From Muribaculaceae bacterium (GTDB lineage Bacteria > Bacteroidota > Bacteroidia > Bacteroidales > Muribaculaceae), in contig JAIDNJ010000057.1 in the NCBI GenBank assembly GCA_029063895.1, positions 4,896 to 68,895 of the forward strand: a stretch of 64,000 nt of DNA, read 5' to 3'. The notes below the pieces were generated by a model. That model was not told where the DNA came from, made no database searches, and saw only the letters and a list, made by a program, of their open reading frames with translations. The first letter of the stretch is position 1. Each line of letters starts with the position of its first letter. Shown in pieces: positions 1,185 to 35,455 of this stretch. The position numbers and the translations under genes are program-made.

Positions 1185-3017
1185 ATGAAAGATTTATTTG
1201 CGCTATTACGCCGGTTTGTTCCGCCTTATAAAAAATATTTGATCCTGAATATTGTATTTAATATTCTGGCTGCATTTCTCACCTTGTTCTCTTTTGCTGT
1301 GATTATACCCATCCTCGAGATGCTTTTCAAAGTTAAGGAGGCAGTCTATACCTACATGCCGCTTGGGTCAGGGTCAATAAAAGATGTAGTTTTCAACAAT
1401 TTCTATTATTTTACTCAGGAAGCTATAGAGCGGTGGGGCCAGTCAACAACACTCGCTTTGCTTGCCTTGGTCCTTGTTGTCATGACTGCTTTAAAGACAG
1501 GCGTTACATATTTGAGTTCCTATTTTATCATCCCGATGAGGTCGGGTATCGTGCGAGACATACGCAACTATGTTTTTGATAAAATAGTGTCACTTCCAAT
1601 ATCCTTTTTCACTTCCGAGCGAAAAGGCGATGTCATGGCCCGTATGAGTGGTGACGTTGCTGAAATAGAGAACTCGATAATGGCGTCACTCGATATGTTT
1701 TTCAAAAATCCGGTCATGATTATCGTTTGTCTGGTGATGATGATCTTGATTTCGTGGCAACTCACGGTTTTTGTATTGATATTGCTACCTATTGCCGGTT
1801 ACTTTATGGGTAAAATAGGCAAGAAACTCAAACGCAAATCGCTCGAGGGGCAAAACCAGTGGGGTGTGCTGATGTCAAATATTGAAGAATGTCTTGGCGG
1901 TCTCCGCGTTATTAAGGCTTTCAATGCCGAACAAAAAATAGAAGACCGCTTTCATCGCGAAAATCAGGTCTTTTATAATTTGTCAAACAAAATAGCGCGC
2001 CGACAGTCGCTTGCTCATCCTATGAGTGAATTTCTCGGCACTGTTGCGATTGCCATTGTGCTTTGGTTTGGCGGTTCACTCATTTTGGGGGGGTATTCAT
2101 CGATGAACGCCGCTTCGTTTATCTATTATATGGTCATTTTTTACAGCATCATCAATCCGGCCAAAGAGTTGTCAAAAGCTATGTATGCAATTCAAAAAGG
2201 ACTTGCATCAATGGAGCGCGTCGATAAAATTCTGGGAGCTAAAAATCCGATACAAGACCCGCCATCTCCGGTTATCATTGATAATTTCAAAGGCGATGTT
2301 GAGTATTCGGGAGTAACGTTCAGTTATGAAAGTTCACCTCATCCCGTGCTTCAGGATATTGACCTTCATATACCGGCCGGAGCGACTGTGGCTCTCGTTG
2401 GGCAATCAGGGTCGGGTAAATCGACACTTGCCGATCTGTTACCACGATTCTATGATGTTAAAAAGGGGGCGGTGAAAATCGACGGAATAGATATCAGAGA
2501 CCTCAAGGTACATGACCTACGCTCTTATATGGGTAATGTTAATCAGGAGGCCATACTCTTTAACGACACTTTTTACAATAATATAACTTTTGGTGTTAAA
2601 AACGCAACGATGGAACAGGTCGAGGAGGCCGCCCGCATCGCCAATGCCCATGATTTCATCATGGAGTCGGAAAACGGTTACGAGACAATGATTGGCGACC
2701 GCGGATGCCGACTCTCGGGAGGACAGCGTCAGCGTCTCTCGATAGCTCGAGCTATTCTTAAAAATCCCCCGTTGCTTATTCTTGATGAAGCTACATCGGC
2801 ACTCGATTCCGAGAGCGAGAAACTCGTTCAGGAGGCTCTCGACCGGTTAATGAAGAATCGAACTACTCTCGTCATTGCCCACCGACTGTCGACCATCCGC
2901 AACGCCGACCTCATTTGTGTGCTTCATGAAGGCCGCATTGTAGAACGTGGAACCCATGACGAGTTGTTCCGACTCGACGGGTATTACCGCCGTCTTGTCG
3001 ACATGCAAAAATTTTAA
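1185..3017 (+). CDS. ABC transporter, fused permease/ATP-binding protein (MsbA-like exporter)
   Basis: The N-terminal half is a TM domain. It carries Walker A GQSGSGKST, the ABC signature LSGGQRQR and Walker B LLILDEATSALD. Confidence 0.9.
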   Translation: MKDLFALLRRFVPPYKKYLILNIVFNILAAFLTLFSFAVIIPILEMLFKVKEAVYTYMPLGSGSIKDVVFNNFYYFTQEAIERWGQSTTLALLALVLVVMTALKTGVTYLSSYFIIPMRSGIVRDIRNYVFDKIVSLPISFFTSERKGDVMARMSGDVAEIENSIMASLDMFFKNPVMIIVCLVMMILISWQLTVFVLILLPIAGYFMGKIGKKLKRKSLEGQNQWGVLMSNIEECLGGLRVIKAFNAEQKIEDRFHRENQVFYNLSNKIARRQSLAHPMSEFLGTVAIAIVLWFGGSLILGGYSSMNAASFIYYMVIFYSIINPAKELSKAMYAIQKGLASMERVDKILGAKNPIQDPPSPVIIDNFKGDVEYSGVTFSYESSPHPVLQDIDLHIPAGATVALVGQSGSGKSTLADLLPRFYDVKKGAVKIDGIDIRDLKVHDLRSYMGNVNQEAILFNDTFYNNITFGVKNATMEQVEEAARIANAHDFIMESENGYETMIGDRGCRLSGGQRQRLSIARAILKNPPLLILDEATSALDSESEKLVQEALDRLMKNRTTLVIAHRLSTIRNADLICVLHEGRIVERGTHDELFRLDGYYRRLVDMQKF

Positions 3018-4318: not shown

Positions 4319-5116
4319 ATGAAAAGGGTCTTCTTATATAGCATAATAGCAGCTTTCTTGTTAACGGCTTGCTCGACGTCGCGATCGTCATTAACCTATT
4401 TTGAGGATATTGATAAGGCTACAAAATCGTTTGATGTCGATACGGCTCAACTTGTTATCGCGCCACATGACGAGCTGTTGATTTCTGTAACATCTTTTGT
4501 TCCTGAAGCAACAGCCCAATATAATTTACCTCCGACTAACATGTCGACAACCGAAAGCACTCAGATTTCATCAGCTTATGCTATCTCGACCTATGTAGTG
4601 AATCCTGCCGGTTATATCGACATTCCTTCAATCGGTCTACTGAAAGTAGAAGGGATGACAACAACACAGCTTACCGACTCGCTCGTGAGACTAATATCAA
4701 AAGAGGTTGTCGATCCAAACGTAAGAGTTCAGTTGGTCAATTTTGCGGTAAATGTTATTGGTGAAGTAAAAAATCCCGGACATTTCAAACTCAACTCCGA
4801 GCGTGTGTCTATTTTTGATGCTATTGCAATGGCAGGTGACCTGACAGAATATGGTCGTCGCGATGCGGTAATACTCATCAGGGAAACCGATGGCAAACGA
4901 ACCGTTCATAAACTGAATCTGAACAGTGCTGATATTCTTGACTCGCCTTACTATTACTTGCAACAGAACGATGTGGTTTATATCGAACCAAACAAGATAA
5001 GGCAGGACAATTCAAAATATAACCAGAACAATGCCTACAAGCTGTCGCTGACTTCAACTATTGTCAGTGTTGCCTCGGTTATTGCTTCTCTGATAATTGC
5101 CATCATTATCAAGTAA
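4319..5116 (+). CDS. Polysaccharide export outer-membrane lipoprotein (Wza/Poly_export-SLBB type)
   Basis: There is a lipoprotein signal MKRVFLYSIIAAFLLTAC, and a GEVKNPGHF SLBB-like motif. ATG at 4319 was chosen over the overlapping track start at 4193. Confidence 0.85.
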   Translation: MKRVFLYSIIAAFLLTACSTSRSSLTYFEDIDKATKSFDVDTAQLVIAPHDELLISVTSFVPEATAQYNLPPTNMSTTESTQISSAYAISTYVVNPAGYIDIPSIGLLKVEGMTTTQLTDSLVRLISKEVVDPNVRVQLVNFAVNVIGEVKNPGHFKLNSERVSIFDAIAMAGDLTEYGRRDAVILIRETDGKRTVHKLNLNSADILDSPYYYLQQNDVVYIEPNKIRQDNSKYNQNNAYKLSLTSTIVSVASVIASLIIAIIIK

Positions 5117-12706: not shown

Positions 12707-13738
12707 TTATTCAGTCGGTATTTTGTAGAGGTTGGCGGCTTTGGTTATATTCACGGCTACGCGTTCGCGCAATTCCGGAGGTGCGATTACCTCGACATGG
12801 CCGCCAAAGCCAAGGATGAGGCGCTCCAGTTCGTTGTTTATAACTACTTTCAGCGAAATTTGGATGCTACCGTCGCGAAATCTTTGCTCAACTTTTTGTG
12901 AGCGATGAAACGGTTTTGACTCGACATAAGGTGCTTGATCTCGGTCAATTTTAATAACTATGCGACGCGCTTTATCTTTTATCATACGTGAGACGCCGAT
13001 GGTGTCGTCAAAGTAGTGGGTCGGGTCAAAATCGACACACTTTTTGAAAGGAATATTATTGTCAACCGTTACCGAATGGATGCGGTCGAGTGCAAAGATG
13101 TTGACCTGTGGGGATCGGTTCAATGTTTTCTCTCCAATTAAAAACCAGCGGTTGCGGTACTCTTTCAACAAGTAGGGATAGACGGTGATAATTTCGGGTT
13201 GACGAGCTTTGAACGACTGATATTCGATAGCGATCGTCTGCTGCTTTTTAACCGCATCATAAATTGTGCCGATAAATTGAGCTCCGCGATAACCCTCGAC
13301 ATGTTCCATATCCATGGCCGGAAGCGACGTGCCTGTATGACGTGAAATCTGCTCGTTGAGCTTGCTGATGATGTCGATTGATGACGCGAGCTGTGGAAAA
13401 CCCTGAAGCTGGCGGAGGATGTCGAGAGCCGAGTTAAGTGCATTAAGCCCCTCGTCGTTGAGTGGCAGATGAGTGATGCTGAAATCGGGGTCTTCATACT
13501 CATAATATTTGTTTTCACGCACGACTATCGGCGCGTTATATCCCAATCGGTCACTGCGCATCAGGGCAAGGTCGTTTTGAAACGTCCGGCGGCTCACCGG
13601 GTTGCTCCTGCCTTCAAACTCGGCTAACGCATCGGTGCATGCATTGATGAGGTCGTTGATGGTCCATCGGCGATAATGATTTTGAAGACAGCGATCGATA
13701 GTCGATATTCTTATGAGTGTAGAGCGATTAAGAGGCAT
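12707..13738 (-). CDS. WYL domain transcriptional regulator (HTH-WYL)
   Basis: There is an N-terminal HTH-like region, and the WYL core is VYPYLLKEYRNRWFLIGE. It is divergent from rtcB. A TATTTTTG box lies at 13755-13762 on the minus strand. Confidence 0.8.
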   Translation of the reverse strand: MPLNRSTLIRISTIDRCLQNHYRRWTINDLINACTDALAEFEGRSNPVSRRTFQNDLALMRSDRLGYNAPIVVRENKYYEYEDPDFSITHLPLNDEGLNALNSALDILRQLQGFPQLASSIDIISKLNEQISRHTGTSLPAMDMEHVEGYRGAQFIGTIYDAVKKQQTIAIEYQSFKARQPEIITVYPYLLKEYRNRWFLIGEKTLNRSPQVNIFALDRIHSVTVDNNIPFKKCVDFDPTHYFDDTIGVSRMIKDKARRIVIKIDRDQAPYVESKPFHRSQKVEQRFRDGSIQISLKVVINNELERLILGFGGHVEVIAPPELRERVAVNITKAANLYKIPTE

Positions 13739-13834
13739 ATCACAAAATTTTTGACAAAAATAGAAAAATAATTCCTGCTGCGCAAATCAACTGCGCACTC
13801 ATCCGGAACCTTTGCATCATAAATTTATATAACT

Positions 13835-15034
13835 ATGATAATAGAAGGAAAAACGACGGCGGCACGAATATTTACCGATAATATTGAAGACGCCGCTCTT
13901 CAATGGGTCAAAGACCTTTGTGATCAACCAGCATTTGAAGGAATACCGATTGTCCAGATGCCCGATGTTCATGCCGGCAACGGGTGTAACGTCGGGACTG
14001 CATATCCGGTGGGCGCATATGTTAATCCCGACCATGTGGGGGTTGACATCGGGTGTACCATATCGATGTACAGGCTCTCCTCACCGGTCTGTCCCGACGA
14101 TTATGCCCTGCTTAACCACCGTATCCGTGAGGCGGTGCCGATGGGTACCGATATATGCGCTAAAAATTCGATGAATGAAAAAGAACTTTTCCGATTTCTC
14201 AATTCGCGGTATCAGAAGGCACGTTCGGCTGCCCCTGATCTAATCGACGAAATACGGCGCATCGATGACAGGTTTATTTCTGATTTTTGTCGTCGCGTCA
14301 AGTTGCAGGAGGGTAGCTTCTATAAAAGTCTCGGCACCCTCGGGGGTGGAAATCATTTTATTGAATATGGCGAAGGCGTGACGACCGGTGACGGCTGGCT
14401 TTCAATTCATTGTGGCTCTCGAAATCTTGGTGTAAAGGTTGCCAATTACTGGCATAATGTGGCCCGGAATCCTAAACGGGCGAGCTTTATCGGTTATCTG
14501 TGGGGTGATTCGTTGCGAGGATATCTCTCTGACATGATTATAGCACAGGCTTATGCACTATATAATCATCAGATAATTGGCGACCGAATATTTGCAATAT
14601 TAAAAAAGCTTTGTAAGTCCAAATGTGTTGAGTCAATCATTACCATCCACAACTACATATCGGTGACCGACGACTGTCCCATACTTCGCAAGGGGGCAAT
14701 TGATGCGTCCGATGGGTTGAAAGTCGCTATTCCGTTCAACATGCGCGATGGCATAGCAATATGCCGTGGCCGCGGAAACGAGCAGTGGCTCAACTCGGCA
14801 CCTCACGGCGCCGGCCGATGCATGAGCCGTGCGCAGGCACGTAAAAACATATCGCTTGACGATTTTGAGCAGCTTATGTCGGGCATATTTTCAACCTCAG
14901 TAGTGGAGACTACACTCGACGAGTCGCCTGGAGCTTATAAACCAACCGATGAAATCATCAGGCTTATAGAACCGACGGTTGAGATTCTAACACTTGTCAA
15001 GCCAAAACTTAACATTAAAGATACCGGAAAATGA
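13835..15034 (+). CDS. rtcB: RNA ligase RtcB family (RtcB2 type, paired with PrfH)
   Basis: Motifs MPDVHAG, GGGNHFIE, HCGSRNLG and the C-terminal PHGAGR are present. Confidence 0.9.
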   Translation: MIIEGKTTAARIFTDNIEDAALQWVKDLCDQPAFEGIPIVQMPDVHAGNGCNVGTAYPVGAYVNPDHVGVDIGCTISMYRLSSPVCPDDYALLNHRIREAVPMGTDICAKNSMNEKELFRFLNSRYQKARSAAPDLIDEIRRIDDRFISDFCRRVKLQEGSFYKSLGTLGGGNHFIEYGEGVTTGDGWLSIHCGSRNLGVKVANYWHNVARNPKRASFIGYLWGDSLRGYLSDMIIAQAYALYNHQIIGDRIFAILKKLCKSKCVESIITIHNYISVTDDCPILRKGAIDASDGLKVAIPFNMRDGIAICRGRGNEQWLNSAPHGAGRCMSRAQARKNISLDDFEQLMSGIFSTSVVETTLDESPGAYKPTDEIIRLIEPTVEILTLVKPKLNIKDTGK

Positions 15035-15666
15035 AAGAAATAAAACAAAATGATAATACAAAATTTAAATACATACAGATAACCGCCGGGCGCGGTCCGG
15101 TCGAGTGTGCCCGTGTCGTTACCCTTGTTGCACGTGAACTGATAAAAGCCGCTCCAACGCTTTCAATAGCCGACAGTGAGCCTCACAATCAGCACGATGA
15201 TTGCTACATGTCGTTGACATTGGTTAGCGACAGTCCGTTGTCACCGGCTTTTGTTGCCGAGTGGGAGGGAACGATGCAGTGGACAGCTACCCGCAATTCC
15301 TACAGGCCCGGGCATAAACGTGTCAACTGGTTTGTCGGCATCAGTTTTTTTGATGAAGTTGAACTGCCGACGATAAGCGATGGTGACATCGTTTATGAGT
15401 CATGTCGTTCGGGTGGTAAAGGTGGCCAAAATGTCAACAAAGTTGAGACAGCTGTGCGAGCCGTCCATCTCCCAACCGGTCTGTCGGTGAAATGCTCTGA
15501 CCAACGTTCCCAACACCAAAATAAAGTTATTGCCCGTCAGCGGTTGATGCTCAAACTCCATGCCCGCCAGACTGCTTGTAAAAACGAGTCCCGTGCCGAG
15601 CGCTGGACCTGTCACGACTCGCTTGAGCGCGGAAACCCCGTCAAGAAATTCAGAGGACCGCTGTGA
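15031..15666 (+). CDS. prfH: Peptide chain release factor H-like protein
   Basis: The GGQ motif (SGGKGGQNVNKVETAV) sits in a short RF-like protein. An ATGA overlap links it to rtcB. Confidence 0.85.
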   Translation: MKEIKQNDNTKFKYIQITAGRGPVECARVVTLVARELIKAAPTLSIADSEPHNQHDDCYMSLTLVSDSPLSPAFVAEWEGTMQWTATRNSYRPGHKRVNWFVGISFFDEVELPTISDGDIVYESCRSGGKGGQNVNKVETAVRAVHLPTGLSVKCSDQRSQHQNKVIARQRLMLKLHARQTACKNESRAERWTCHDSLERGNPVKKFRGPL

Positions 15667-15791
15667 ATTTATAATATTGTAGTGTTGATTTACATTCAGA
15701 CTTCAATGTTAATGAAAATAACTATATTTGTATTACGAAATTTTAATTGAATAATCGGAGCCATGTATCACAAAATGATACATCAGAGAAA

Positions 15792-15799
15792 TAATTTTG
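15792..15799 (+). promoter_or_regulatory. Candidate -7 promoter box (TAATTTTG)
   Basis: Matches TAnnTTTG and lies 17 nt upstream of the ATG at 15816. It is preceded by an 8-bp inverted repeat, ATGTATCA (15763-15770) and TGATACAT (15776-15783). Confidence 0.35.
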
Positions 15800-15815: not shown

Positions 15816-16337
15816 ATGAATAAAACGATGATTCTTGCAATAGGTGGTGCCGGTTGCAATATCGCTGAAACTTTTGTTGGTAATGCATCGGTACAGTGGC
15901 TAAAAGATGCAACTTATGTTTTTGCCGACAGTGATTTGAGTCATATAACCCAACTAACCGACAAGGGTTATAAGACTATTACGCTTCATAACGATTCTGA
16001 TTGTTTTAAGCCGGAAATTTTTGACAGGATCAAAAAGATTTATATTCTTGCCGGATTGGGTGGAATGACCGGAAGTGCATACATTGGTAAAGCAGTCGAA
16101 AGTACCAGGGCTGTGGGAATCGATGACATTACTGCGATTGTCACTACTCCATTTTTATTTGAGGGAGAAGCGGTGATTGAGAAAGCTGTAAAAACAATCG
16201 AGTCAATATCGGGTATTCGGGTAAAAGTATTTAATAACTATGCTCTACTGCAAAAATATACTGATACTGACTTAAAAAGTGCATTTGGATATTTTGAACG
16301 GGAGATGTTGAAGTTTATGGAATCGGAAGAAATCTGA
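15816..16337 (+). CDS. Truncated FtsZ/tubulin-like GTP-binding domain protein (173 aa, N-terminal domain only)
   Basis: IGGAGCN (15840-15860) resembles the FtsZ T1 loop. AGLGGMTGS (16050-16076) resembles the tubulin signature. VTTPFLFEG (16140-16166) resembles FtsZ VTxPFxFEG, and VFNNYALL resembles IPNDKLL. The protein ends in the H7 region and has no C-terminal domain or T7 loop. Confidence 0.6.
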   Translation: MNKTMILAIGGAGCNIAETFVGNASVQWLKDATYVFADSDLSHITQLTDKGYKTITLHNDSDCFKPEIFDRIKKIYILAGLGGMTGSAYIGKAVESTRAVGIDDITAIVTTPFLFEGEAVIEKAVKTIESISGIRVKVFNNYALLQKYTDTDLKSAFGYFEREMLKFMESEEI

Positions 16338-16930
16338 TGAAAATACTACACTTATCTGACACTCACGGGTGCCATCATAGACTTGGCCAACTGCCCTATA
16401 CCGATGTCGTTGTACATTCAGGCGACTTTACAATGAATGGTAGCCAGAGTGAAGCTATCGATTTTCTTAATTGGTTCTGTGATTTGCCCCATCGTCATAA
16501 AATTTTCATTTGCGGGAACCACGATGAGTGTCTTTATGGTGCCAATATTGACGGTCTCGACAATAATGTGCATTACCTTTGCAACTCGGGTATAGAGATT
16601 GAGGGAGTGAGATTTTATGGCGTGCCTATGTTCATGGGTGATTGTATAACAGATCGACAGACCCGCAACTATGAGCGTATTCCCCAGGATACCGATGTAC
16701 TCATCACTCATTGCCCGGCATACGGTATTCTTGATGTTGACGATAATATTCATTATGGCTCGGAAGAAATCTTGTCAAAGCTATCGGCTGTCCGCCCAAA
16801 AGCTCATCTTTTCGGTCATATTCATGTTCAACACGGATTAACAACTGTCGATGGTACGATTTTTTCAAACGGAGCGATTATGAATATCGATTACACAAAT
16901 CTGAACTCTCCCGCTGTTATTGAAATATAA
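16337..16930 (+). CDS. Metallophosphoesterase (calcineurin-like, Metallophos_2 type)
   Basis: Motifs LSDTHG, SGDF, GNHD, THCP and GHIH are present. The start overlaps the upstream stop (TGATG at 16335-16339). Confidence 0.85.
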   Translation: MKILHLSDTHGCHHRLGQLPYTDVVVHSGDFTMNGSQSEAIDFLNWFCDLPHRHKIFICGNHDECLYGANIDGLDNNVHYLCNSGIEIEGVRFYGVPMFMGDCITDRQTRNYERIPQDTDVLITHCPAYGILDVDDNIHYGSEEILSKLSAVRPKAHLFGHIHVQHGLTTVDGTIFSNGAIMNIDYTNLNSPAVIEI

Positions 16931-16967
16931 TTATTGGAAACTGACGACTGTGCCATATCGACACTAA

Positions 16968-18554
<1,587 letters not shown>

Positions 18555-22571: not shown

Positions 22572-22754
22572 TTTTAAAATGTCTGCGTAATAATTGATTT
22601 AAATTTAAGTGTTTACAAAGTTACGCATAAAAAACAAGATAGCGAAGGAAGTAGGAGATAAAAAAATCACTTATAAAATTGAAATTTTTAATGCTGTATC
22701 GCTGAATGATACACCATCGCTCTAATTTTGCAGCGTAACTTAAAAAACATCAAA

Positions 22755-23270
22755 ATGGAACCTATCACAAAAAATGAATTTCTCAACTCAGTTCTTGAAG
22801 CCGAAGCATGGAAAGAGATTTCTCAGTCAGAATCGCTCAGCATGGATATGCTTGAAAAATATGTCGATAAACTCGATTGGGATGAAGTTAGCGGCAATAC
22901 AAAAGTGCTTTGGACAATCGACGGTATCAACAAATTTATCAATCGCATTGATTGGGACGAGTTCTCGCGCAGTTGTTCCGATCACCTCATTTGTGAGTCG
23001 GTACTCATGAAATTTTCCAATCGATGGGATTGGAAAGCGCTCTCCAATCGAGATTGTTTCTACAATAACTGGAGCCTCCTCGAAAAATTTACCGACAAAG
23101 CCGATTGGTCAGAAATCATCACAAATTGGAGCATCGAGAAGCCACTTGAATTTTTCGCACGATTCCAGCAATACATCCCCATGTCAAAGCTCCAGGACTC
23201 TCGCCTATGGAACGAAATGGTCGAGGCGCGTGCCAAAAGCATTATGCAGGAAGCTGTGGGGATAAGGTGA
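22755..23270 (+). CDS. Hypothetical tandem-repeat protein (about 5 repeats of a DW-x2-(L/V/F/I)S motif)
   Basis: The repeats are KLDWDEVS, RIDWDEFS, RWDWKALS and KADWSEII, spaced about 25-31 aa apart. ATG at 22755 is preferred over the TTG track start at 22728. Confidence 0.5.
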   Translation: MEPITKNEFLNSVLEAEAWKEISQSESLSMDMLEKYVDKLDWDEVSGNTKVLWTIDGINKFINRIDWDEFSRSCSDHLICESVLMKFSNRWDWKALSNRDCFYNNWSLLEKFTDKADWSEIITNWSIEKPLEFFARFQQYIPMSKLQDSRLWNEMVEARAKSIMQEAVGIR

Positions 23271-23520: not shown

Positions 23521-25512
23521 GTGGAATCTACAAAAAGTGAAAATTTAATAGAGCAAAAAGCCATTGGAGACTTACTATGTGGCTATGAGTTCCATATTCC
23601 TCCTTATCAGAGAGGTTATCGCTGGACAAAACAGCAAGTGGTAGATCTTTGTAACGACTTGTTGGAATATGCTCTTAGGCCGTTATCGGATATAGCGGAT
23701 ACAAAAACTTTTTACAGTCTTCAACCTTTGGTTGTAAAATATCGTAATGAGAAGTCATTTGACGTAATCGATGGACAGCAGCGACTGACCACAATCTACA
23801 TATTGTTTCGCTTCTTGATGGCTGAATTGGGACCAACACCTGATAGGTTAAAACGTATACAACGAGATGTAAACCTCTATTCAATTATCTATGAAACTCG
23901 TAAAGATGATACTGATTTTATTGCAGATTTAGGTTCTTATGGCTGGGAAGAACGACTTAGTGCGTGGGCAATGGATATTGATATAGCTCATATTTATAAT
24001 GCATATCAATATATGAAAGAATGGCTATATCCTAAGGATGAGAATGAAAGATATTCAAGTGTAGCTACTTGTAGACGATTTATAAAAGAGGGAATGGACT
24101 CATATGAGATTGCACTTAAACTCCTGACTCTTCTAAAAAATAAAAAGGACACTACAAAACCCGAGGGAAATGCACAGTTTATTTGGTATCAATTATCCTC
24201 AGATAAAGATGCTATAGAAGAGTTTATTGTTGAGAATAAGGGAAAAATAGGTCTCAGCGATACTGAAAGAATCCGAGCTTTGTTCTTATATCGAGAAGAT
24301 AAAAACAATGAGGTCGATGTGGCTCAACAAATAAGCATTGCTAAGGATTGGGATGAGATAGAGACAACACTTCAAGATTCAGGATTTTGGTCTTTTATTA
24401 GTTCCGAAAATTTGGAAGAGGGTAGAATATCTCTATTATTTCAGTATATTAATAATATAGATACTCTTAAAGATAAAAAAGTATCCAGTGATCTATATCG
24501 ATTTTACGAGCAGAAGTTTGCAGAAAAAGAAGGGAATGTAGCTATGAGGGAATGGGAAAGAATTCTCGAAGCTTTTCGAATGCTAAAAAACTGGTATAAG
24601 GATGCGTATTTGTTTAATATAATAGGTCTTCTCACACGGGAAGGTATTAGTCTAAATGATATTGCACATATCTACTATAGCCAAGATGTAAAAACAACGG
24701 CACAGTTTGTTATAGAACTTAACAAAATTGTTAACAGAAAATGTCTTCCCCGGTTAGGATCAGAAGTTAAGGAAGGTGAAGAATCTCACATAAAGACCGG
24801 TCAGAATGATAAATTTGGATTTAAATTTGGAGAGCTCCATCTTAACCTCAATTTTAATGACCATAAAGATAAAATTCGTTCATTGCTTTTGTTTTTAAAT
24901 ATTCTGGTTTTAAATGAGCAAATTGAGAATCATAGAAAGAATGATATGGCCTATAGTGGTAATGAGTATCGTTTTGCGTTTGATTTGTTTGACAAAGAGA
25001 CGTGGGATGTCGAGCATATAGATTCGGCAACCACCAATCAACTTAAATCAGAGTCCACAAGAGCAATGTGGATACATAATGCTGATGCGGCTATAAAGCA
25101 TTTTTACAAGAAAGACTACCCTGCTTTTTTGGTAGTAAAGGAAAAATACGAGTCAGGAGAAACAAACTTTGAGACTCTCCACAAAAAAGTTATTGAGTTA
25201 ACGGATATCGAATCATCCGATGAGGAAATGAAGAATTGGATAGGGAATCTAACACTTCTTAACGCCAATATAAATCGTGGATATGGAAATGATATTTTTG
25301 CTGCTAAATGTATGAAGATTGACGAAAAGGTTAACGCTGGTGCGTTTGTTCCGGTATGTACACGCATGGTGTTTTATAAGGCAATACCAAATAATGAAAA
25401 TTCAGCAAGCCACCTCGAATGGAATTTCACCGACAAGAAAGCATATCATGATTGGATGCTGAAAAAGATTATGGATTTCAAAAAAAGATTCCCACTCAAA
25501 ATAGAATACTAA
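23521..25512 (+). CDS. GmrSD-like type IV restriction-type protein (N-terminal DUF262, C-terminal DUF1524 His-Me finger)
   Basis: The DUF262 motifs are IPPYQRGYRW and DGQQRLTT (23770-23793). The DUF1524-like region is WDVEHID ... GNLTLLNANINRGYGN (25012-25290). The apparent start is GTG. Confidence 0.8.
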   Translation: MESTKSENLIEQKAIGDLLCGYEFHIPPYQRGYRWTKQQVVDLCNDLLEYALRPLSDIADTKTFYSLQPLVVKYRNEKSFDVIDGQQRLTTIYILFRFLMAELGPTPDRLKRIQRDVNLYSIIYETRKDDTDFIADLGSYGWEERLSAWAMDIDIAHIYNAYQYMKEWLYPKDENERYSSVATCRRFIKEGMDSYEIALKLLTLLKNKKDTTKPEGNAQFIWYQLSSDKDAIEEFIVENKGKIGLSDTERIRALFLYREDKNNEVDVAQQISIAKDWDEIETTLQDSGFWSFISSENLEEGRISLLFQYINNIDTLKDKKVSSDLYRFYEQKFAEKEGNVAMREWERILEAFRMLKNWYKDAYLFNIIGLLTREGISLNDIAHIYYSQDVKTTAQFVIELNKIVNRKCLPRLGSEVKEGEESHIKTGQNDKFGFKFGELHLNLNFNDHKDKIRSLLLFLNILVLNEQIENHRKNDMAYSGNEYRFAFDLFDKETWDVEHIDSATTNQLKSESTRAMWIHNADAAIKHFYKKDYPAFLVVKEKYESGETNFETLHKKVIELTDIESSDEEMKNWIGNLTLLNANINRGYGNDIFAAKCMKIDEKVNAGAFVPVCTRMVFYKAIPNNENSASHLEWNFTDKKAYHDWMLKKIMDFKKRFPLKIEY

Positions 25513-25513
25513 A

Positions 25514-28144
25514 ATGAGTATATCAAAATTACATACATTAGAGAAACTCCTGTCTGATGGAGTCGATATTTCGGTCAACGATAATGAGGATAGAAATTAT
25601 CCGATTGCTGGCATCCTTATTCCTCGCATACAGCGCCCCTATGCTCAGGGACGCAGAAACAAGAATATTAGTGATATTCGTCGTAATTTTGTCGAGAATC
25701 TGTTGTCTGCAGTGTCATCAGAGGAAGCGTGTACACTTGAACTCAGTTTTATTTTCGGTTCATTGCAAAAAGTTAACTGGGATAATTCAAGACGTATTAA
25801 TGAAGCCCTTGAACTTCTTGATGGTCAGCAGCGACTTACTACGCTCTTTCTTCTCCATTGGTATCTTTACAAAAAAGAGAGTTCAAAAGACTTACCAGAA
25901 TGGTTATCTCGATTCCGATATGAGACGAGAGATTCTTCTACAACATTTTTATTGAAAATTACAGATAATTCAATCGAGATTGACTTGAATGAGATTGTAA
26001 AGGGGAACGATACCAAATCAGAGGATATAATAAAACCATCCGAGGCTATTACACGCCTTATATGGTTCAATAATGATTTCCGTTGTGACACTACTGTAAT
26101 GTCGATGCTGTGTATGCTGGATGAAATCGATTCACAATATAAAGATCTTGATAAAAAGGGTAAGACTCAAGGGCGTATGCTTCATAAGAATCTGGGACGG
26201 ATACAATTCTATATCAGATTACTTCTTAAATTTGACATGTCTGATTTACTGTTTATTAAAATGAACAGTAGGGGATTGCCTCTCGTACCTTTTGAAAATT
26301 TCAAGGCGGATGTGATGAAATATATGGAGAAGGCTAAGACATATGACGAGTTAGTGTATGTAATTAATGACAATCCATCTCCTTTTCATTTTTATTTTGC
26401 ATCTCAAGTTGACACTAAATGGGTGTATATTTTCTGGGACCGACCTGCTATTCCTATCAAAGGGTCGATAATAGAACTTGATGATAAACGTACAGGTGCG
26501 CGCTTTTTTCGTTTTTTTAACCGGATGCTTTTCACGAAACTTGCGGTAGACTATGCTGAAACTGAAGATTCTACTGAAATGGAAGAATTGGAATCTGCAT
26601 GTGAATTCTTTCGTACCATCCCAGAAATCTCCATGAATGAGCATTTAACAGATTGGAACACTAAATACTTGCCTGCGATTTCCCGTTGGAATGGAGGTGA
26701 GGACTATTTCCGTCAAAGCGCTAAAGTTCTAAATGTTCTATCCGACAATTATACCATGGGAATTAAATTGAGAGATGCAATTAGGAAATCACCATTCATA
26801 TCGACGTCTAAATTTGATATATTTTCAAAAGCCAATGATGCTAACGGGACTTTTACTTATGCTCATAGAGCATTTTTATCCGTAATCATTGACTTTATTA
26901 TACAGATACCAGAAGAATATACTATTACATCTTCGATTGTTGCAAACAACCTCAGAAAATTGATTCGTGTGCTTCATAATGTAATAGAGTATACAGAAAT
27001 AGATAAACAAAATATCCTTGATTTTATCAAGGCTTTTCATAAAATACTCCTCTCCATTGAAGTGCAATCTGGAGATTTTTATTGTGCTATCGCAAAATAT
27101 GATGGCAACTTTGAGTGGATTAAGGCAGAAGCTGCAAAGGCTAAAGATATTTGTCGGGATGGTAGGTTTGAAGCAGTGATGGTCCGTGCTGAAGAACATC
27201 CGATTCTCCGCGGTCGCATTACCCCAATATACAAACAAGGAGAAATGACAGTAGAGCAACTTTCAGAGTACGTTGATGAATTATTTCGAATATTCCCTGT
27301 TGATAAAAAAGGAATATGTTTGGGTATCTCTAATGACTACGCTCTGGAAGACTCTCATCTGTTGATTCGCGCCATGATGAGTTGTCTTACGAGCTGGGAT
27401 AAGCTTGTTGGAACTTATGTCACAGAACGAGGTTTTGTCATACGAGGGGGAGAACCAGTCAATAGCCAGTATCTGTCAAATATTCTATTAGGGAAGGGTA
27501 GGGCTGAGAGTCTGTTTCAAAGGTACTTTTTTGAATATTTTGGTAAAAAGGATTTTGGTAAATATCTTGTTGAAGTAATTGAAAATGCTGGTACTCATGA
27601 AATAGATGACGAAAGAACAAGAGATGTTTACAACAGATTGGTGACCGAATCAGACTCATGCAAACTTTATAACTGGATAAAAAGCCGAGAGAAAGATCGC
27701 CCGGATAAAGAGCCCGTTGTTAGATGGCTTAGAGATGCGGGAATTCTCAATTATGACGGTACTAATTATGACCGTCTGGTATTAACTACACCTCGTCGAT
27801 ATGTTATTCCTGCTATAATCCACATAACAGGAGCGCACTTTGAAGATAAAAGTCAAGAAGGACATGTACAGAGATTTGGGGAATATTTTGCTTATGATGT
27901 GAGTGTTGTTAAAGATATTAAAACTAATATGGGACTTGATATAACAATTAAAGCAACGTTTTATCCAAATGGTTTGTGCAAAGTTTATGTGAAGTCAACA
28001 TCTCAGGAAGTTCACAACGCGCTTAAAACTGACCATAATAAGGATGAGAGTTCTTATTGGCATTCTTATAAAGATGAGTCATCCGCACAAGTGATTGGTC
28101 AAAAGATAAATGATTGGGCAGCCCTGTTGCAAACTGGATGTTAG
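25514..28144 (+). CDS. DUF262 domain protein with a long uncharacterised C-terminal region
   Basis: The DUF262 motifs are IPRIQRPYAQG and DGQQRLTT (25820-25843). The gene starts 1 nt after the upstream stop. I recognise no clear catalytic motif in the remaining roughly 600 aa. Confidence 0.7.
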   Translation: MSISKLHTLEKLLSDGVDISVNDNEDRNYPIAGILIPRIQRPYAQGRRNKNISDIRRNFVENLLSAVSSEEACTLELSFIFGSLQKVNWDNSRRINEALELLDGQQRLTTLFLLHWYLYKKESSKDLPEWLSRFRYETRDSSTTFLLKITDNSIEIDLNEIVKGNDTKSEDIIKPSEAITRLIWFNNDFRCDTTVMSMLCMLDEIDSQYKDLDKKGKTQGRMLHKNLGRIQFYIRLLLKFDMSDLLFIKMNSRGLPLVPFENFKADVMKYMEKAKTYDELVYVINDNPSPFHFYFASQVDTKWVYIFWDRPAIPIKGSIIELDDKRTGARFFRFFNRMLFTKLAVDYAETEDSTEMEELESACEFFRTIPEISMNEHLTDWNTKYLPAISRWNGGEDYFRQSAKVLNVLSDNYTMGIKLRDAIRKSPFISTSKFDIFSKANDANGTFTYAHRAFLSVIIDFIIQIPEEYTITSSIVANNLRKLIRVLHNVIEYTEIDKQNILDFIKAFHKILLSIEVQSGDFYCAIAKYDGNFEWIKAEAAKAKDICRDGRFEAVMVRAEEHPILRGRITPIYKQGEMTVEQLSEYVDELFRIFPVDKKGICLGISNDYALEDSHLLIRAMMSCLTSWDKLVGTYVTERGFVIRGGEPVNSQYLSNILLGKGRAESLFQRYFFEYFGKKDFGKYLVEVIENAGTHEIDDERTRDVYNRLVTESDSCKLYNWIKSREKDRPDKEPVVRWLRDAGILNYDGTNYDRLVLTTPRRYVIPAIIHITGAHFEDKSQEGHVQRFGEYFAYDVSVVKDIKTNMGLDITIKATFYPNGLCKVYVKSTSQEVHNALKTDHNKDESSYWHSYKDESSAQVIGQKINDWAALLQTGC

Positions 28145-28191
28145 TATACTATTCCAACTATAGACAAAACAGAGAAATATTGTTTTCAGAT

Positions 28192-28722
28192 CTATCTTAC
28201 CGGGTCCCCGCAATACTGTCGTCTTCCGCACTTGGGGCAGTGCTCTCCGCGCCACACGCTGTCAAACTGCTCCATTGCGGCCTCGACGAGGGTAGGTTCG
28301 TTGGTAAGGATTCCAGCCTCAAAGTTACGGCGCGTGCTGCTCTTCATACCTATACCGGCGCCGGTCAGATTGGCCGAGCCGATGTAGGCAGTTTCATAGT
28401 CAAAGATGAGCATCTTGAAGTGGACACGCGGGCACAGCATCCGTTCCAACGAGGTTCTCAGGGCCGGGTAGCGGTCAAAATCCTCCTGGAAAGCCGGTCC
28501 CGGCTCCTTGGCGTGTATAAGCCGTACTTCAATCCCGCGTTTCAATAAACGTGCAATAACCCCGAGAAACGGTTCGGTCGAGCTCCCCGCTTTCACATGC
28601 AGGTCTTTGATGTCGGCAGTGCCAATCCAGAGCGACTTTCGTACACCGGCTACTCTGGAAAGCACTTCGTTATAGTGATCATCATTCGTAATAAAACGGA
28701 TGAAAGGGGGATTGTTATTCAT
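28192..28722 (-). CDS. Phospholipase D-family (single HKD) nuclease, Nuc-like
   Basis: A canonical HxKx4Dx6GSxN motif, HFKMLIFDYETAYIGSAN, lies at 28369-28422. The C-terminus HCPKCGRRQYC is a possible zinc knuckle. Confidence 0.85.
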   Translation of the reverse strand: MNNNPPFIRFITNDDHYNEVLSRVAGVRKSLWIGTADIKDLHVKAGSSTEPFLGVIARLLKRGIEVRLIHAKEPGPAFQEDFDRYPALRTSLERMLCPRVHFKMLIFDYETAYIGSANLTGAGIGMKSSTRRNFEAGILTNEPTLVEAAMEQFDSVWRGEHCPKCGRRQYCGDPVR

Positions 28723-29776
28723 ATTCTATATAATGTTTTATGTCGCGCTCGGCTTGTAGAAAACGGTTGGCGGTGTGAAGTATTATACTTCGGGCGCCGT
28801 CATCGTGAGCCAAAAGATCAGTGTGGGTGGCAAACTCTGTCAGCATATTGAATACTGTCCAGACGTTTAGGTCAGTCTTGACCAATTTTGCTTGTTTCTT
28901 AATGTCAACACCACGAGTGCTGAAATAGTTCTCATATTTTCGTGTTGGCAAAAAGGAATCAACAGTTTCGGCCGACATATTCGTTTGGTGTCCCGTCAAC
29001 TCTCGACTGATACTTTGCAATTCAAATAGAGAGCATGTGGTATTCATGGCTTCCAAAGCCTTTTCTTCATAGGTCCGGAATCCGATTTTAGGCAACTGAC
29101 GACTTTTGGCCAGTTCAATCATGCGATGCACTTCTGACGGATTAAATGAATAAAGTTTCGTTTGCTGTTTCTTCACAGTCGCCACCGCTCCATTTGTACA
29201 TACAAGACGTGTATAGAAGTTGCCAAGCTCAATCTCGTCGCCGGTCCAATGAAGATAGGCACCATCGGTTATCGTGTCCTCTCCTGGCGCAAACTGCTGT
29301 ATGGTTGGAGTCCGGCTTTGCATGTATATCATGATGTCAAACAGTCCGTTGCTGCGAACGTCCATTTTCTCAAGTTCATAACGGGCATCTTCCATAAACA
29401 GTTGGGCAAAGTCAAAAAATTGTTGAGGAGGGATGAACTCCTGTTTTGGAATTAAAATGTTAACAATATGTCTTGTTTCAGGGGATGCGATGATAACCAC
29501 ATCCTTATTGTTGGCAAGACTGTTGGCATCAGAAAGGAAGTTTCGGAAATTAACCTGTCCGACATCACCCGAGGCGTTTCTCACCATGTTGAGTTGAGCT
29601 CGGCTTGTACCAATTTGTCGATTAAGTGACTCAATCACCGATGGTTCGAAAACAAGATCCATACCGTTGAGGTCAAACAACGGTCCGTCGATTTGTCTAA
29701 GGTCGCCCAATGCGACTTTTTTGTGCGGAAATAGCTGCTGTTCTATTTTAGCAGATTGGGAAATGAAATTTGGCAT
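28715..29776 (-). CDS. DUF932-like (phage/plasmid-type) protein
   Basis: RLVCTNG (29189-29209), preceded by TDGAYLHW, resembles the DUF932 RxxCxNG core as I recall it. The start overlaps the upstream stop (TAATG) and the end overlaps the PLD gene by 8 nt. Confidence 0.55.
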   Translation of the reverse strand: MPNFISQSAKIEQQLFPHKKVALGDLRQIDGPLFDLNGMDLVFEPSVIESLNRQIGTSRAQLNMVRNASGDVGQVNFRNFLSDANSLANNKDVVIIASPETRHIVNILIPKQEFIPPQQFFDFAQLFMEDARYELEKMDVRSNGLFDIMIYMQSRTPTIQQFAPGEDTITDGAYLHWTGDEIELGNFYTRLVCTNGAVATVKKQQTKLYSFNPSEVHRMIELAKSRQLPKIGFRTYEEKALEAMNTTCSLFELQSISRELTGHQTNMSAETVDSFLPTRKYENYFSTRGVDIKKQAKLVKTDLNVWTVFNMLTEFATHTDLLAHDDGARSIILHTANRFLQAERDIKHYIEYE

Positions 29777-30654
29777 TACTGATTATCTATATTTTCAGAG
29801 TTATTAAATAGTTCGTCAAAACGATCGGCATATTTGCGCAAACTGTTTGCAACCTCAGTCTGCATGCGTCTGATTCGGGCGTCTTTTTCATATCGTTCTT
29901 CGTCAAACCGTACATCACCTGTCGTGCTCAAATCATAATATAGCCTAACGCCTACATCGCCGCGCCTATGCTTTGAGAATACCACATATCGGTCCGAGAA
30001 AACATTACGCGGATTGTCAAAACGTAATTCCATCATTGCGGTGATACTGTGTTTCAGTCGGTTGGAACCTATAAAGTTACCCGATTTTGTTACTTGTTGA
30101 ATTGTTAGAAAGGTCGTGTTTAAACCTCTTTGGTTTTGAGCTTTATTATTTCGCTTTATCATTGCCAGCATCCGATTTTCGGCCTCCTTCATGCGTAAAT
30201 TCTCTTCGTCCTTTATGATGCCCTGAAGTTCATAAAATGAATCAATGGCTACAATATCCCAGCCAAGGTCAAGAGTAGCTTCTATTTCAGTGAGGTTATG
30301 AGAACAATCATTACCCGAAAAACTACTCTCAATAAATAAGATATCGATATACTTAAATTTAGGGTAGCGCTGAACATAGATGGCAAGGTCTATTTCGTTC
30401 ATTTCGGCGCTTACAAATAATATACGGGCGTTGGGGTAATAATTCATGATGTTGGCAAGCATATCCAGCACAATAGTTGTTTTGCCCGAGCCAGGATCGC
30501 CAATAATCATGTAATTTACACCCTTGGGGAGACCATTATAGCTACATAGCAATCGGTCGAGTACCGTATGGGTATCGAAGTTTATGAATAGCGACTTGTC
30601 AAAATTCAAGTCGCACATTCTTACAATATTCGGGATTCTGACATCTTCAATCAT
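29776..30654 (-). CDS. RadA/Sms-like RecA-fold ATPase (no Zn-finger or Lon-like domain)
   Basis: Walker A is GDPGSGKTT (30475-30501) and Walker B is WDIVAIDSF. VTKSGNFIGSNRLKHSITAMMEL resembles RadA HVTKxGxxAGPxxLEHxVD, and SKHRRG stands in place of KNRFG. The track start at 30702 is TTG, so ATG at 30654 is preferred. Confidence 0.75.
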   Translation of the reverse strand: MIEDVRIPNIVRMCDLNFDKSLFINFDTHTVLDRLLCSYNGLPKGVNYMIIGDPGSGKTTIVLDMLANIMNYYPNARILFVSAEMNEIDLAIYVQRYPKFKYIDILFIESSFSGNDCSHNLTEIEATLDLGWDIVAIDSFYELQGIIKDEENLRMKEAENRMLAMIKRNNKAQNQRGLNTTFLTIQQVTKSGNFIGSNRLKHSITAMMELRFDNPRNVFSDRYVVFSKHRRGDVGVRLYYDLSTTGDVRFDEERYEKDARIRRMQTEVANSLRKYADRFDELFNNSENIDNQ

Positions 30655-30707
30655 GATAGCAAAGTTAGAGCTATGATATGCCGGATTGCGACATAGACTC
30701 AATAAAT

Positions 30708-30929
30708 TTAGTCATCTTCAAATATATGCTTATCTATTTCTCTCACCATGTCATCAATAAGCCTGACAAAGTGGCGGTGCTGAATGGCAACCCCAATCAC
30801 GATACCCATCAATCCTTTTACATAGAATGAGTGGGGAGGTCCTATAAAATATGCTAACCCACCAAGAATTATCGGCAGAATAAGTAATCGCAAATATTTG
30901 ACATATAAACAAAGCAATTTGTATAACAT
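30708..30929 (-). CDS. Small membrane protein (73 aa, two predicted TM helices, acidic C-terminus)
   Basis: Two hydrophobic segments are LRLLILPIILGGLAYFIG and GLMGIVIGVAI. It has an ATG start and is the first gene of the minus-strand cluster. Confidence 0.5.
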   Translation of the reverse strand: MLYKLLCLYVKYLRLLILPIILGGLAYFIGPPHSFYVKGLMGIVIGVAIQHRHFVRLIDDMVREIDKHIFEDD

Positions 30930-31020
30930 ATTGATTCATTTAAATATAAAAAGAGAAATAGTATCCCAAAACTTGAATACTTTTGAAAAAAGACATTTAT
31001 GAGATGATCTGTTTCGCCTG

Positions 31021-31028
31021 CAAAAGTA
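31021..31028 (-). promoter_or_regulatory. Candidate -7 promoter box (TACTTTTG on the minus strand) for the 30929-28192 operon
   Basis: The reverse complement of CAAAAGTA matches TAnnTTTG. It lies about 90 nt upstream of the ATG at 30929. Confidence 0.3.
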
Positions 31029-31093
31029 TGGCATAGTTTGATATTGGACAATTAAACTGTTACCATTAATCAATTGACGCAAATAGTCATGGA

Positions 31094-32143: not shown

Positions 32144-32277
32144 AGCTATATCATTTTCGGGCAAAGTTAGCTATGAGGTGACGCGAATCGTGATACAGCA
32201 AACAAAAAGTGCAAAATAGGATATCAAACAAGTTTTACAGTAGGTTTGTTTTAATTCTAAATTATAAAAAGAAAACG

Positions 32278-32952: not shown

Positions 32953-33006
32953 AAGTTTGATATCATCTAAGCAGAGTATCTCAATTATCCTTTGAGCATA
33001 ATTACT

Positions 33007-33717: not shown

Positions 33718-33819
33718 ATCTTATGCTTTTTTGCACAAAATTAGAAACGACCTGTCCCAAATATCGATACACGATTAATAAAATTTCTCCGGTTTAGATT
33801 TTTATGAAAAATGTTGAAG

Positions 33820-35210: not shown

Positions 35211-35455
35211 CTCTTTTTGATTTAATACTGCAAAGATAGTCAAAGCCTGTCACATTTTGTGATACAGGTCATGGTAAAAGTAAGATATTTTTGTGGAAAA
35301 AATCAGAATTGAGCAACAAAAGGCTTGAAACCTGTAAAAATTGTTGTGCCGATTTTGATGCCGATGGAATTTTATGTAAATTTGTAGCATATTCTAAAAA
35401 CACTTTGTAGATCGTTCGGAAGGCGATTGTCGAATTATTTTTAGATTTTATACCG

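Follow-up and report, generated by a model that had tools for sequence, protein, structure and literature searches.

The 64,000-nucleotide (nt) stretch of a Muribaculaceae genome analyzed here (contig JAIDNJ010000057.1, hereafter the window) carries a gene for a 173-amino acid (aa) protein that corresponds to the nucleotide-binding half of the cell division protein FtsZ, and this mini-FtsZ is followed without a gap by the gene of a calcineurin-like phosphoesterase. With a probability of roughly 0.85, we read the pair as a functional Bacteroidales mini-FtsZ and a co-translated MPPED2-type phosphodiesterase that form a cassette of a WYL-linked nucleic acid damage or conflict regulon, and that travel with the RNA ligase RtcB or with an RtcB-PrfH pair. 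FtsZ and tubulin are defined by head-to-tail polymerization: each subunit has its GTPase site activated by the C-terminal half of its neighbor. A nucleotide-binding half that stands alone under purifying selection therefore needs a different function. The role that we favor, tentatively and at clearly less than even odds, is that of an inducible capper of FtsZ filaments.

The 173-aa open reading frame (ORF) was confirmed as an FtsZ nucleotide-binding domain by both sequence comparison and structural modeling. It scores above the cut-off of the Pfam Tubulin family (PF00091; 35.9 bits against a cut-off of 33) and far below that of the canonical cell division FtsZ equivalog TIGR00065 (33.1 bits against a cut-off of 295.2, over residues 72-162 only), and its overall identity to known FtsZ proteins is about 15-22%. 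All of its sequence matches in the Protein Data Bank (PDB) to about E = 0.2 are FtsZ, and the best of them, T. maritima 1w5f (E = 2e-6), presumably comes from the 2004 work of Oliva, Cordell and Lowe, in which FtsZ was reportedly split by experiment into independently folding domains. An AlphaFold2 model, built from an alignment of 35 family members, reached a predicted local distance difference test score (pLDDT) of 90.4 and a predicted template modeling score (pTM) of 0.88, and when it was compared with the PDB using Foldseek the 50 best matches were all FtsZ (50/50), with query template modeling (TM) scores mostly of 0.7-0.84 and E-values of ~1e-9 to 1e-7. As sequence and fold match FtsZ only, a different Rossmann-like family can be excluded, and the original prediction that the protein is an FtsZ N-terminal domain alone was borne out by this structural check.

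The four FtsZ-like motifs quoted in that prediction are all present (IGGAGCN at residues 9-15, GLGGMTGS at 80-87, VTTPFLFEG at 109-117 and VFNNYALL at 139-146). They were mapped by aligning family members with Bacteroidales FtsZ from the fetched loci and with E. coli FtsZ, which served for numbering only. T1 reads GGAGCN as opposed to GGGGGN in FtsZ and its cysteine (Cys14) is invariant, T2 is D38-S39-D40 (aligned to N43-T44-D45), and the T4 tubulin signature GGGTG[ST]G takes the form GGxTG within GLGGMTGS, with G82, G83 and T85 nearly invariant and the third glycine variable. T5 is PFLFEG, the last of the four phosphate/ribose loops (T1, T2, T4 and T5) that are kept. Of the positions that read guanine, the T6 asparagine (N141) is retained, and helix H7 keeps its phenylalanine (F157), followed four positions on by an acidic residue (E161 in the window copy, Asp in most members) that corresponds to the residue by which FtsZ reads guanine. 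The invariant and near-invariant residues of the family alignment almost all fall in T1, T2, T4, T5, T6 or H7. The T3 loop (GAGANP), which contacts the gamma-phosphate, is gone along with most of H3, a deletion of ~17-20 residues relative to Bacteroidales and E. coli FtsZ. The chain stops where H7 ends, just short of the T7 synergy loop (NxDxxD), and no match to the C-terminal domain FtsZ_C (PF12327) was found in the ORF; these losses, also part of the original prediction, are confirmed. Ending where it does, the mini-FtsZ is without the T7 catalytic loop and without the "bottom" polymerization face, and the missing face predicts that it would form no canonical homopolymer. Since the guanine-contacting positions are kept, the protein may fairly be expected to bind a guanine nucleotide without a gamma-phosphate sensor or a self-activated GTPase. 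Compared with the FtsZ N-terminal domain, the fold (TM 0.8-0.84 for the best matches) and the elements T1, T2, T4, T5, T6 and H7 are the same, whereas the mini-FtsZ is a natural stand-alone gene with T3/H3 deleted and with its own versions of T1 (GGAGCN) and T4 (GGxTG).

Judged from its sequences, the mini-FtsZ is a small but maintained family of Bacteroidales, chiefly of Muribaculaceae. A search of 5.8 billion proteins returned 61 protein clusters, nearly all of 161-186 aa and the named ones from Muribaculaceae, and an exhaustive profile search gave 34 representatives at E < 1e-30 and, with lower scores, a large number of further stand-alone proteins of 165-190 aa. Metagenomes were scanned with an N-terminal-only alignment of the family; a contig scan with the full family alignment mostly returned true FtsZ, as the PFxFEG pattern is common to both, and yielded one real relative. 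Over 265 gene pairs from the fetched loci, the median ratio of non-synonymous to synonymous substitution rates (dN/dS) is 0.15 for the mini-FtsZ and 0.125 for the phosphoesterase. A functionless, decayed fragment of a longer FtsZ paralogue had been considered as an alternative, and two-domain relatives do exist, as does real decay in some loci where the first ~34 codons are left. However, a length of 161-186 aa in about 60 clusters, invariant catalytic-site-like motifs, the low dN/dS, a conserved stop/start overlap with the following gene and a confident fold effectively refute the pseudogene reading, the probability of which we regard as negligible.

On sequence grounds, the mini-FtsZ appears to derive from the FtsZ of Bacteroidales. 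Most Bacteroidales FtsZ proteins score 68-84 bits with the family profile, as opposed to 56 bits for E. coli FtsZ and 52-56 bits for archaeal and Verrucomicrobial ones. Over T5/H5 and T6-H7 (PFLFEG; NNExL..Y.D.NF.NAF) the sequence is almost that of Bacteroidales FtsZ, including a hydrophobic residue at the position of E. coli L178. A possible evolutionary intermediate is a 328-aa two-domain FtsZ paralogue in a Sodaliphilus metagenome-assembled genome (locus L003, JBGUJU010000088.1, 5710-6696; Tubulin 90 bits, FtsZ_C 47 bits), which has the signature GLGGETGT and neither a T3 loop nor a C-terminal tail. The island around it also holds two HAD_SAK RNA-end phosphatases, a microbial poly(ADP-ribose) glycohydrolase (PARG) and, beside the HAD_SAK genes, a homologue of the 171-aa gene of the window (2248-2772, 33% identity). 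In other relatives, of 305-343 aa, hhalign matches the C-terminus to FtsZ_C (probability 86%, E = 5e-6), and T7 is degenerate. The likely history is that FtsZ gave rise to an accessory paralogue without T3, from which the C-terminal domain was then lost. Other architectures occur as well: an unrelated C-terminal domain of ~130 aa is seen, the C-terminal extension of the P0187, P0190 and P0197 group is without similarity to FtsZ_C, and a 646-aa protein (P0281) fuses MUG113/GIY-YIG and a zinc ribbon to a mini-FtsZ. An 800-aa fusion of an FtsK/SpoIIIE ATPase and a mini-FtsZ (P0215; locus L121, 753-3155) adjoins a SprT-like gene.

The partner of the mini-FtsZ is a complete calcineurin-like phosphoesterase (PF00149, E = 9.5e-14). 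The metal motifs of this family (DxH, GD, GNH[DE], H and GHxH) are all found, with D8, D30, N61-H62, H125 and H161 invariant and H10 and H163 nearly invariant among 25 homologues. MPPED2 is its closest solved relative by sequence (phmmer, 3rl4, E = 1.3e-25) and by fold (Foldseek, E = 9e-16, TM 0.82-0.85, about 30% identity), and indeed the only close one, with the next-best fold matches nine orders of magnitude weaker (E ~1e-6). MPPED proteins are class III phosphodiesterases hydrolyzing cAMP and cGMP (PMC10547211). The window enzyme resembles MPPED2, MPPED1, dMpped and Rv0805 in sequence, fold and all metal-binding motifs, however, it is shorter (197 as opposed to about 290 aa), bacterial and located in a WYL/RtcB island, and the 2',3'-cyclic ends of RNA are as plausible a substrate as cyclic nucleotides. 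It is also a full-length match to the PADLOC defense candidate PDC-S10 (hidden Markov model, E = 1.2e-74, 248 bits, residues 1-196 on profile positions 10-215 of 223). As a candidate, PDC-S10 consists of one gene, and no functional study or report of phage protection was found for it in the literature. The mini-FtsZ has no match in PADLOC and is part of none of its models. Homologues of the phosphoesterase at 31-43% identity are present in jumbo phages and Flavobacterium phages.

The two genes meet in TGATG, where the TGA of the mini-FtsZ (16335-16337) and the ATG of the phosphoesterase (16337-16339) overlap by 1 nt as first described. Co-occurrence was surveyed over 39 distinct mini-FtsZ genes from metagenomes and assemblies, 38 of them with enough downstream sequence. 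The phosphoesterase is directly downstream in 31 of the 38, 32 of the 34 loci examined preserve the 1-nt stop/start overlap, as TAATG or TGATG, and the junction is retained while the upstream neighbors vary. Conserved pairing is thus upheld, but the pair is, on the genomic evidence, one cassette of a larger regulon and does not form a two-gene module in its own right. Clusters of the phosphoesterase outnumber those of the mini-FtsZ about 50-fold (>3,200 vs. ~60), and phosphoesterases 70-79% identical to that of the window are translationally coupled to unrelated upstream genes instead, namely those of a 329-aa protein with a PD-(D/E)XK-like motif, a 204-aa protein of no known family and, on plasmids, a metallo-beta-lactamase (MBL) hydrolase (Prevotella) or a 3'-5' exonuclease (Marinobacter). 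Coupling therefore looks like a trait of a phosphoesterase that stands last in its operon. Distant mini-FtsZs (31-36% identity) have no adjacent phosphoesterase and lie beside a small protein with two transmembrane segments, a leucine-rich repeat (LRR) protein or an exonuclease, and a syntenic relative of the window locus has the order WYL-RtcB-PrfH-mini-FtsZ with the phosphoesterase missing. In six loci (L105-L109 and L112, at about 5001-5102), no more than the first 16-34 mini-FtsZ codons are left in front of an intact phosphoesterase, which by sequence is a recent deletion of the mini-FtsZ that spared its partner. No function has been described for the two-gene arrangement in the literature that we searched, as had been supposed.

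These observations bear on a second possible role, the main alternative to the one that we favor but rather unlikely in our view, in which, along the lines of the nucleotide-sensing module first suggested, the mini-FtsZ is a guanine nucleotide sensor or regulatory subunit that would form a complex with the co-translated phosphodiesterase and gate it by GTP, GDP, GMP or a signaling nucleotide. The enzyme would then act on cyclic nucleotides, on RNA ends bearing a 2',3'-cyclic phosphate or on intermediates of the type RNA(3')pp(5')G. The frequency of the overlap and of the downstream enzyme, the junction that outlasts its upstream neighbors and a family conservation focused on nucleotide-contacting residues would all be expected of such a partnership. 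RtcB ligases, which are encoded nearby, use GTP and release GMP (reference cited in PMC4012209). The only close solved relative, MPPED2, is itself a class III cAMP/cGMP phosphodiesterase (PMC10547211). However, the much larger phosphoesterase family with its unrelated coupled partners, the distant mini-FtsZs without a phosphoesterase and the loci that keep the enzyme after losing the mini-FtsZ all count against it, and a sensor leaves unexplained why the enzyme so often occurs without one. We are aware of no earlier case in which an enzyme is regulated by an FtsZ domain.

Membership of the pair in a regulon is indicated by its promoter. The 19-bp palindromic operator TGTATCACAAAATGATACA (consensus TGTMTC-N7-GAKACA) stands in the -33 position of the mini-FtsZ promoter, before a Bacteroidetes-type -7 box (TAATTTTG); no TTTG -33 element was found upstream on the + strand of this promoter or in the other copies inspected. 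A sigma-70 promoter scan is not applicable to Bacteroidetes. The window holds four operator sites (0.37 expected), all 9 nt from a -7 box of the form TAnnTTTG. Across the window and the fetched loci (1.22 Mb, much of it redundant) there are 109 sites, 106 of which have a TAnnTTTG box 8-10 nt away, whereas shuffled sequence gave 9.4 sites and none with a box. The pair had been credited with a box of its own preceded by an 8-bp inverted repeat. Both are present, with the arms of the repeat at 15763-15770 (ATGTATCA) and 15776-15783 (TGATACAT), but the repeat is part of the operator and is not private to the pair.

Operator copies also precede the operon of a 300-aa WYL regulator (WYL300) and a 3'-5' exonuclease in the window, and in other loci they precede the orthologous WYL gene and the cassette operons. 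Identity among main-clade loci is 70-86% for the WYL proteins, with locus L045 divergent at about 45%; the exonucleases share 76-88%, and WYL300 is 70-78% identical to the WYL proteins encoded beside mini-FtsZ/phosphoesterase cassettes elsewhere. As in WYL regulons of the CapW/BrxR/DriD/PafBC type, one palindrome is common to the regulator and target promoters. Since the WYL-exonuclease operon and the cargo genes share the operator, the simplest reading of the sequences is an autoregulated WYL regulon in which the mini-FtsZ and phosphoesterase are one cassette. This would be a previously undescribed regulon of Muribaculaceae, defined by its common operator and comprising the 3'-5' exonuclease, RtcB-associated cassettes, nucleases, the LRR protein and the PDC-S10 phosphoesterase. 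In Caulobacter, the WYL transcription factor DriD induces the division inhibitor DidA after DNA damage (PMC9186387, PMC4211646), and in both the DriD-didA and PafBC systems a WYL-domain regulator with a palindrome by the core promoter controls a damage regulon (PMC9186387, PMC4211646, PMC11804915). DidA, however, is a small membrane protein unrelated to FtsZ, and WYL DNA binding is predicted in the present case. The operator in place of the upstream promoter element would resemble activator-type WYL promoters, and its position fits repression by occlusion as well as PafBC/DriD-like activation.

The island in which the pair resides is itself recurrent. The usual order is an RtcB gene of the 417-445 aa type (-), then an operon in which an MBL/RMMBL hydrolase, a 330-aa protein or a 204-aa protein precedes the mini-FtsZ and phosphoesterase, followed by a 71-99-aa protein and a 343-aa WYL gene (-) that diverges from an RtcB (399-405 aa type)-PrfH pair. 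Among loci of at least 9 kb, a WYL gene is present in 28/30, RtcB (within ~6 kb) in 25/30 and PrfH, in the RtcB-PrfH pair, in 21/30. The original prediction had placed the pair in an accessory patch next to rtcB-prfH, and these genes are indeed directly upstream, but the recurrence of RtcB shows that they are not chance neighbors. RtcB-PrfH repairs ribosomes cut by colicin E3-type toxins (PMC9304027, PMC9223846), and WYL factors have been proposed to sense RNA fragments in systems of repair and conflict (PMC9503650); accordingly, the context is one of a nucleic acid damage or conflict response. The rtcB-prfH genes of the window have the same architecture as the RtcB2-PrfH module, however, the module as described has no FtsZ-like or phosphoesterase partner (PMC9304027, PMC9223846), and RtcB here has a distinct upstream repeat of its own. 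This repeat, YTRCGCA-N6-YTRCGCA, occurs immediately before RtcB genes, belonging to both paralogue types, in 36 fetched loci (for example L041 5769-5788, L055 4013-4032 and L066 1157-1176), differs from TGTMTC-N7-GAKACA and may be the site of the 343-aa WYL regulator.

With RtcB so near in most loci, the mini-FtsZ could be an accessory of RNA repair that supplies or senses GTP for RtcB guanylylation, or that scaffolds RtcB, PrfH and the phosphoesterase. A gene call (P0186) that fuses a 70-aa RtcB-adjacent protein to a mini-FtsZ and the HAD_SAK RNA-end phosphatases of related islands would agree with this. Nevertheless, more distant mini-FtsZ loci are without any RtcB, and we know of no mechanism of this kind. 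Given also that E. coli RtcB-PrfH works without such a factor (PMC9304027, PMC9223846), we consider an RNA repair accessory improbable.

Hardly less unlikely is a part in a conflict system, where the mini-FtsZ would serve as a decoy for phage or toxin FtsZ inhibitors or modifiers, or as a nucleotide-dependent anti-phage or anti-plasmid effector or sensor. The PDC-S10 match of its partner, its own fast evolution and the PARG gene of a related island would fit, as would the contents of the islands, which include PD-(D/E)XK-like and MBL/RMMBL nucleases, an IetA-like AAA+ protein and GmrSD genes; the PD-(D/E)XK reading of the 330-aa and 311-aa proteins comes from motifs picked out by eye alone. 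In loci L050-L052 the island, made up of WYL-RtcB and 204-330-mini-FtsZ-phosphoesterase, borders directly on a lysozyme gene and on part of a Bacteroidales conjugative transposon (TraQ, TraO, DUF4138 and TraM genes), and it is therefore at least sometimes the cargo of a mobile element; other copies sit between housekeeping genes. On the other side, no mini-FtsZ copies were found in IMG/VR, GenBank phages or PLSDB plasmids, the mini-FtsZ is unmatched in PADLOC, PDC-S10 is a candidate only, with no tested function found, and no specific attacker is indicated. The 204-aa, 330-aa, 213-aa, 99/71-aa and 171-aa neighbor families were assigned by neither Pfam nor PADLOC.

Capping of FtsZ filaments is thus the role that we favor for the mini-FtsZ. 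The WYL regulator would sense damaged nucleic acid and switch the operon on, the phosphodiesterase would process cyclic-phosphate RNA ends or cyclic nucleotides, and the mini-FtsZ, loaded with nucleotide, would use the "top" face that it still has to bind host FtsZ at the T7 "bottom" face. Lacking a bottom face itself, the mini-FtsZ would cap the growing ends of protofilaments, and division would be delayed during repair. MciZ and SulA are known FtsZ inhibitors that act at the bottom face. New subunits join an FtsZ filament at its bottom end, and mutants of the bottom interface block division at substoichiometric levels (bioRxiv 10.1101/2020.02.25.965095). The mini-FtsZ has a top face and no bottom face at all, the geometry that makes poisons of these dominant-negative mutants, however, the known inhibitors are either full-length point mutants or unrelated small proteins, and in the mini-FtsZ the top face is partly missing (T3/H3). 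We favor capping because a top-face-only FtsZ has the geometry of a bottom-face poison, because the nucleotide-site residues under selection are those for GTP-dependent longitudinal contact, because the T5 and T6-H7 stretches of the top face remain FtsZ-like, and because damage regulons commonly include a division inhibitor, the WYL case being DriD-didA (PMC9186387, PMC4211646). The FtsK/SpoIIIE ATPase fusion was also counted in its favor. In its fullest form, in which a top-face-only FtsZ would be a stress-induced, substoichiometric capper of the Z-ring and the instrument of a WYL-controlled division checkpoint coupled to RNA repair, the proposal is doubtful.

Several points weigh against this interpretation. 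The deleted T3 loop and H3 are part of the longitudinal top interface, Q47/Q48 of T2 are not retained, and the window copy has a valine at the R142/R143 position, where most members have Lys or Arg. The contact between the mini-FtsZ and FtsZ is one that we infer, the 1-nt overlap with the phosphoesterase (32/34 loci) would be equally expected of a stoichiometric partnership, and the binding of WYL300 to the operator is predicted through guilt by association. Furthermore, the mini-FtsZ is only 46-53% identical between loci, as opposed to 70-88% for the phosphoesterase, WYL protein and exonuclease, and such faster divergence fits badly with a very conserved target. The loci that lost the mini-FtsZ and kept the phosphoesterase indicate that it is dispensable there, and the window sequence matched DNA metagenomes only and no RNA runs.

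Table 1. Features of the mini-FtsZ locus and of the operator-linked genes in the window.
Feature	Position	Strand	Remarks
579-aa protein, Schlafen/AlbA_2 + HATPase_c_4 + C-terminal winged helix-turn-helix	10887-12626	-	adjoins the 343-aa WYL gene
343-aa WYL/WCX regulator (WYL343)	12707-13738	-	divergent from rtcB-prfH; 90% identical to L055 orthologue
Second repeat, CTGCGCA-N6-CTGCGCA	13778-13797		WYL343/rtcB intergenic region
rtcB	13835-15034	+	RNA ligase; directly upstream of the mini-FtsZ pair
prfH	15031-15666	+	ribosome rescue; pairs with rtcB (span 13835-15666)
Operator, 19-bp palindrome	15764-15782		contains the 8-bp inverted repeat
-7 box, Bacteroidetes type	15792-15799	+	9 nt after operator, 16 nt before ATG
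Mini-FtsZ	15816-16337	+	173 aa; FtsZ nucleotide-binding domain only
MPPED2-like class III metallophosphodiesterase (PADLOC PDC-S10)	16337-16930	+	197 aa; predicted from sequence and fold
guaB (IMP dehydrogenase)	16931-18554		directly after the phosphoesterase
Operator, exact copy	22695-22713		9 nt before TAATTTTG box of the 171-aa gene
171-aa gene	22755-23270	+	no Pfam match; internal W/D-rich repeats; operator and -7 box in front
LRR protein gene	33007-33717	-	operator-driven
Operator copy, 1 mismatch	33753-33771		9 nt before -7 box of the LRR protein gene
RNase T/Rv2179c-like 3'-5' exonuclease	33820-34308	-	operon with WYL300
300-aa WYL/WCX regulator (WYL300)	34308-35210	-	presumed regulator of the operator
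Operator copy, 1 mismatch	35248-35266		9 nt before -7 box of the WYL300-exonuclease operon; presumed autoregulatory

The island of the window is flanked by a capsule locus on one side and by guaB on the other (Table 1). IMP dehydrogenase catalyzes the committed step toward GTP, however, its adjacency to the phosphoesterase is probably a coincidence, as the downstream genes differ in other loci. The gene of the 579-aa Schlafen/AlbA_2 protein is missing from the syntenic locus L055. An accessory and defense stretch (23521-35266) contains two GmrSD (DUF262) type IV restriction genes, a PLD-family nuclease, a DUF932 protein, a KaiC/DnaB_C-like ATPase, a DUF6557 protein, an FMN reductase, the LRR protein and the WYL-RNase T operon. 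A matching arrangement is found on the Prevotella plasmid pE2-28 (locus L125), where two DUF262 genes, an exonuclease and a WYL gene are divergent from an MBL-phosphoesterase pair. Rfam and terminator scans of the region gave no matches.

The novelty of the mini-FtsZ lies in its architecture and context within the FtsZ/tubulin superfamily and in the WYL-linked regulon to which it belongs. No stand-alone family of FtsZ N-terminal domains was found described in the literature, although a mention in the 2016 survey of RNA repair by Burroughs and Aravind is possible, and nothing relevant was found on a link between FtsZ and RtcB, on this operator or on a Bacteroides WYL regulon. A comparison can be made with FtsZl1 and FtsZl2, which likewise diverge within the FtsZ/tubulin superfamily and were recognized through genome context, and of which FtsZl1 is also without the FtsZ C-terminal domain and lacks a recognizable T6-H7 region (Makarova and Koonin 2010, PMC2875224). 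Both are large and have several domains (one of about 1,000 aa with a coiled coil and an alpha-helical domain, the other with a C-terminal region of ~300 aa), and they come from vWA/OmpA membrane-remodeling operons (PMC2875224), whereas the mini-FtsZ is a 173-aa single domain that keeps T6 and H7 and is found in RNA-repair/WYL islands.

The regulon provides a testable context for a PADLOC defense candidate and for the RNA-repair islands of gut Bacteroidales. Should the mini-FtsZ prove to be a sensor for its phosphodiesterase, it would represent a new use of the tubulin fold. If it is a filament capper, it would be a new kind of division inhibitor in abundant gut bacteria, the first to be derived from FtsZ itself, and a natural tool for studying filament polarity. 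It would also be an extant case of the split-domain FtsZ that has been postulated to lie at the origin of tubulin-type polymers.

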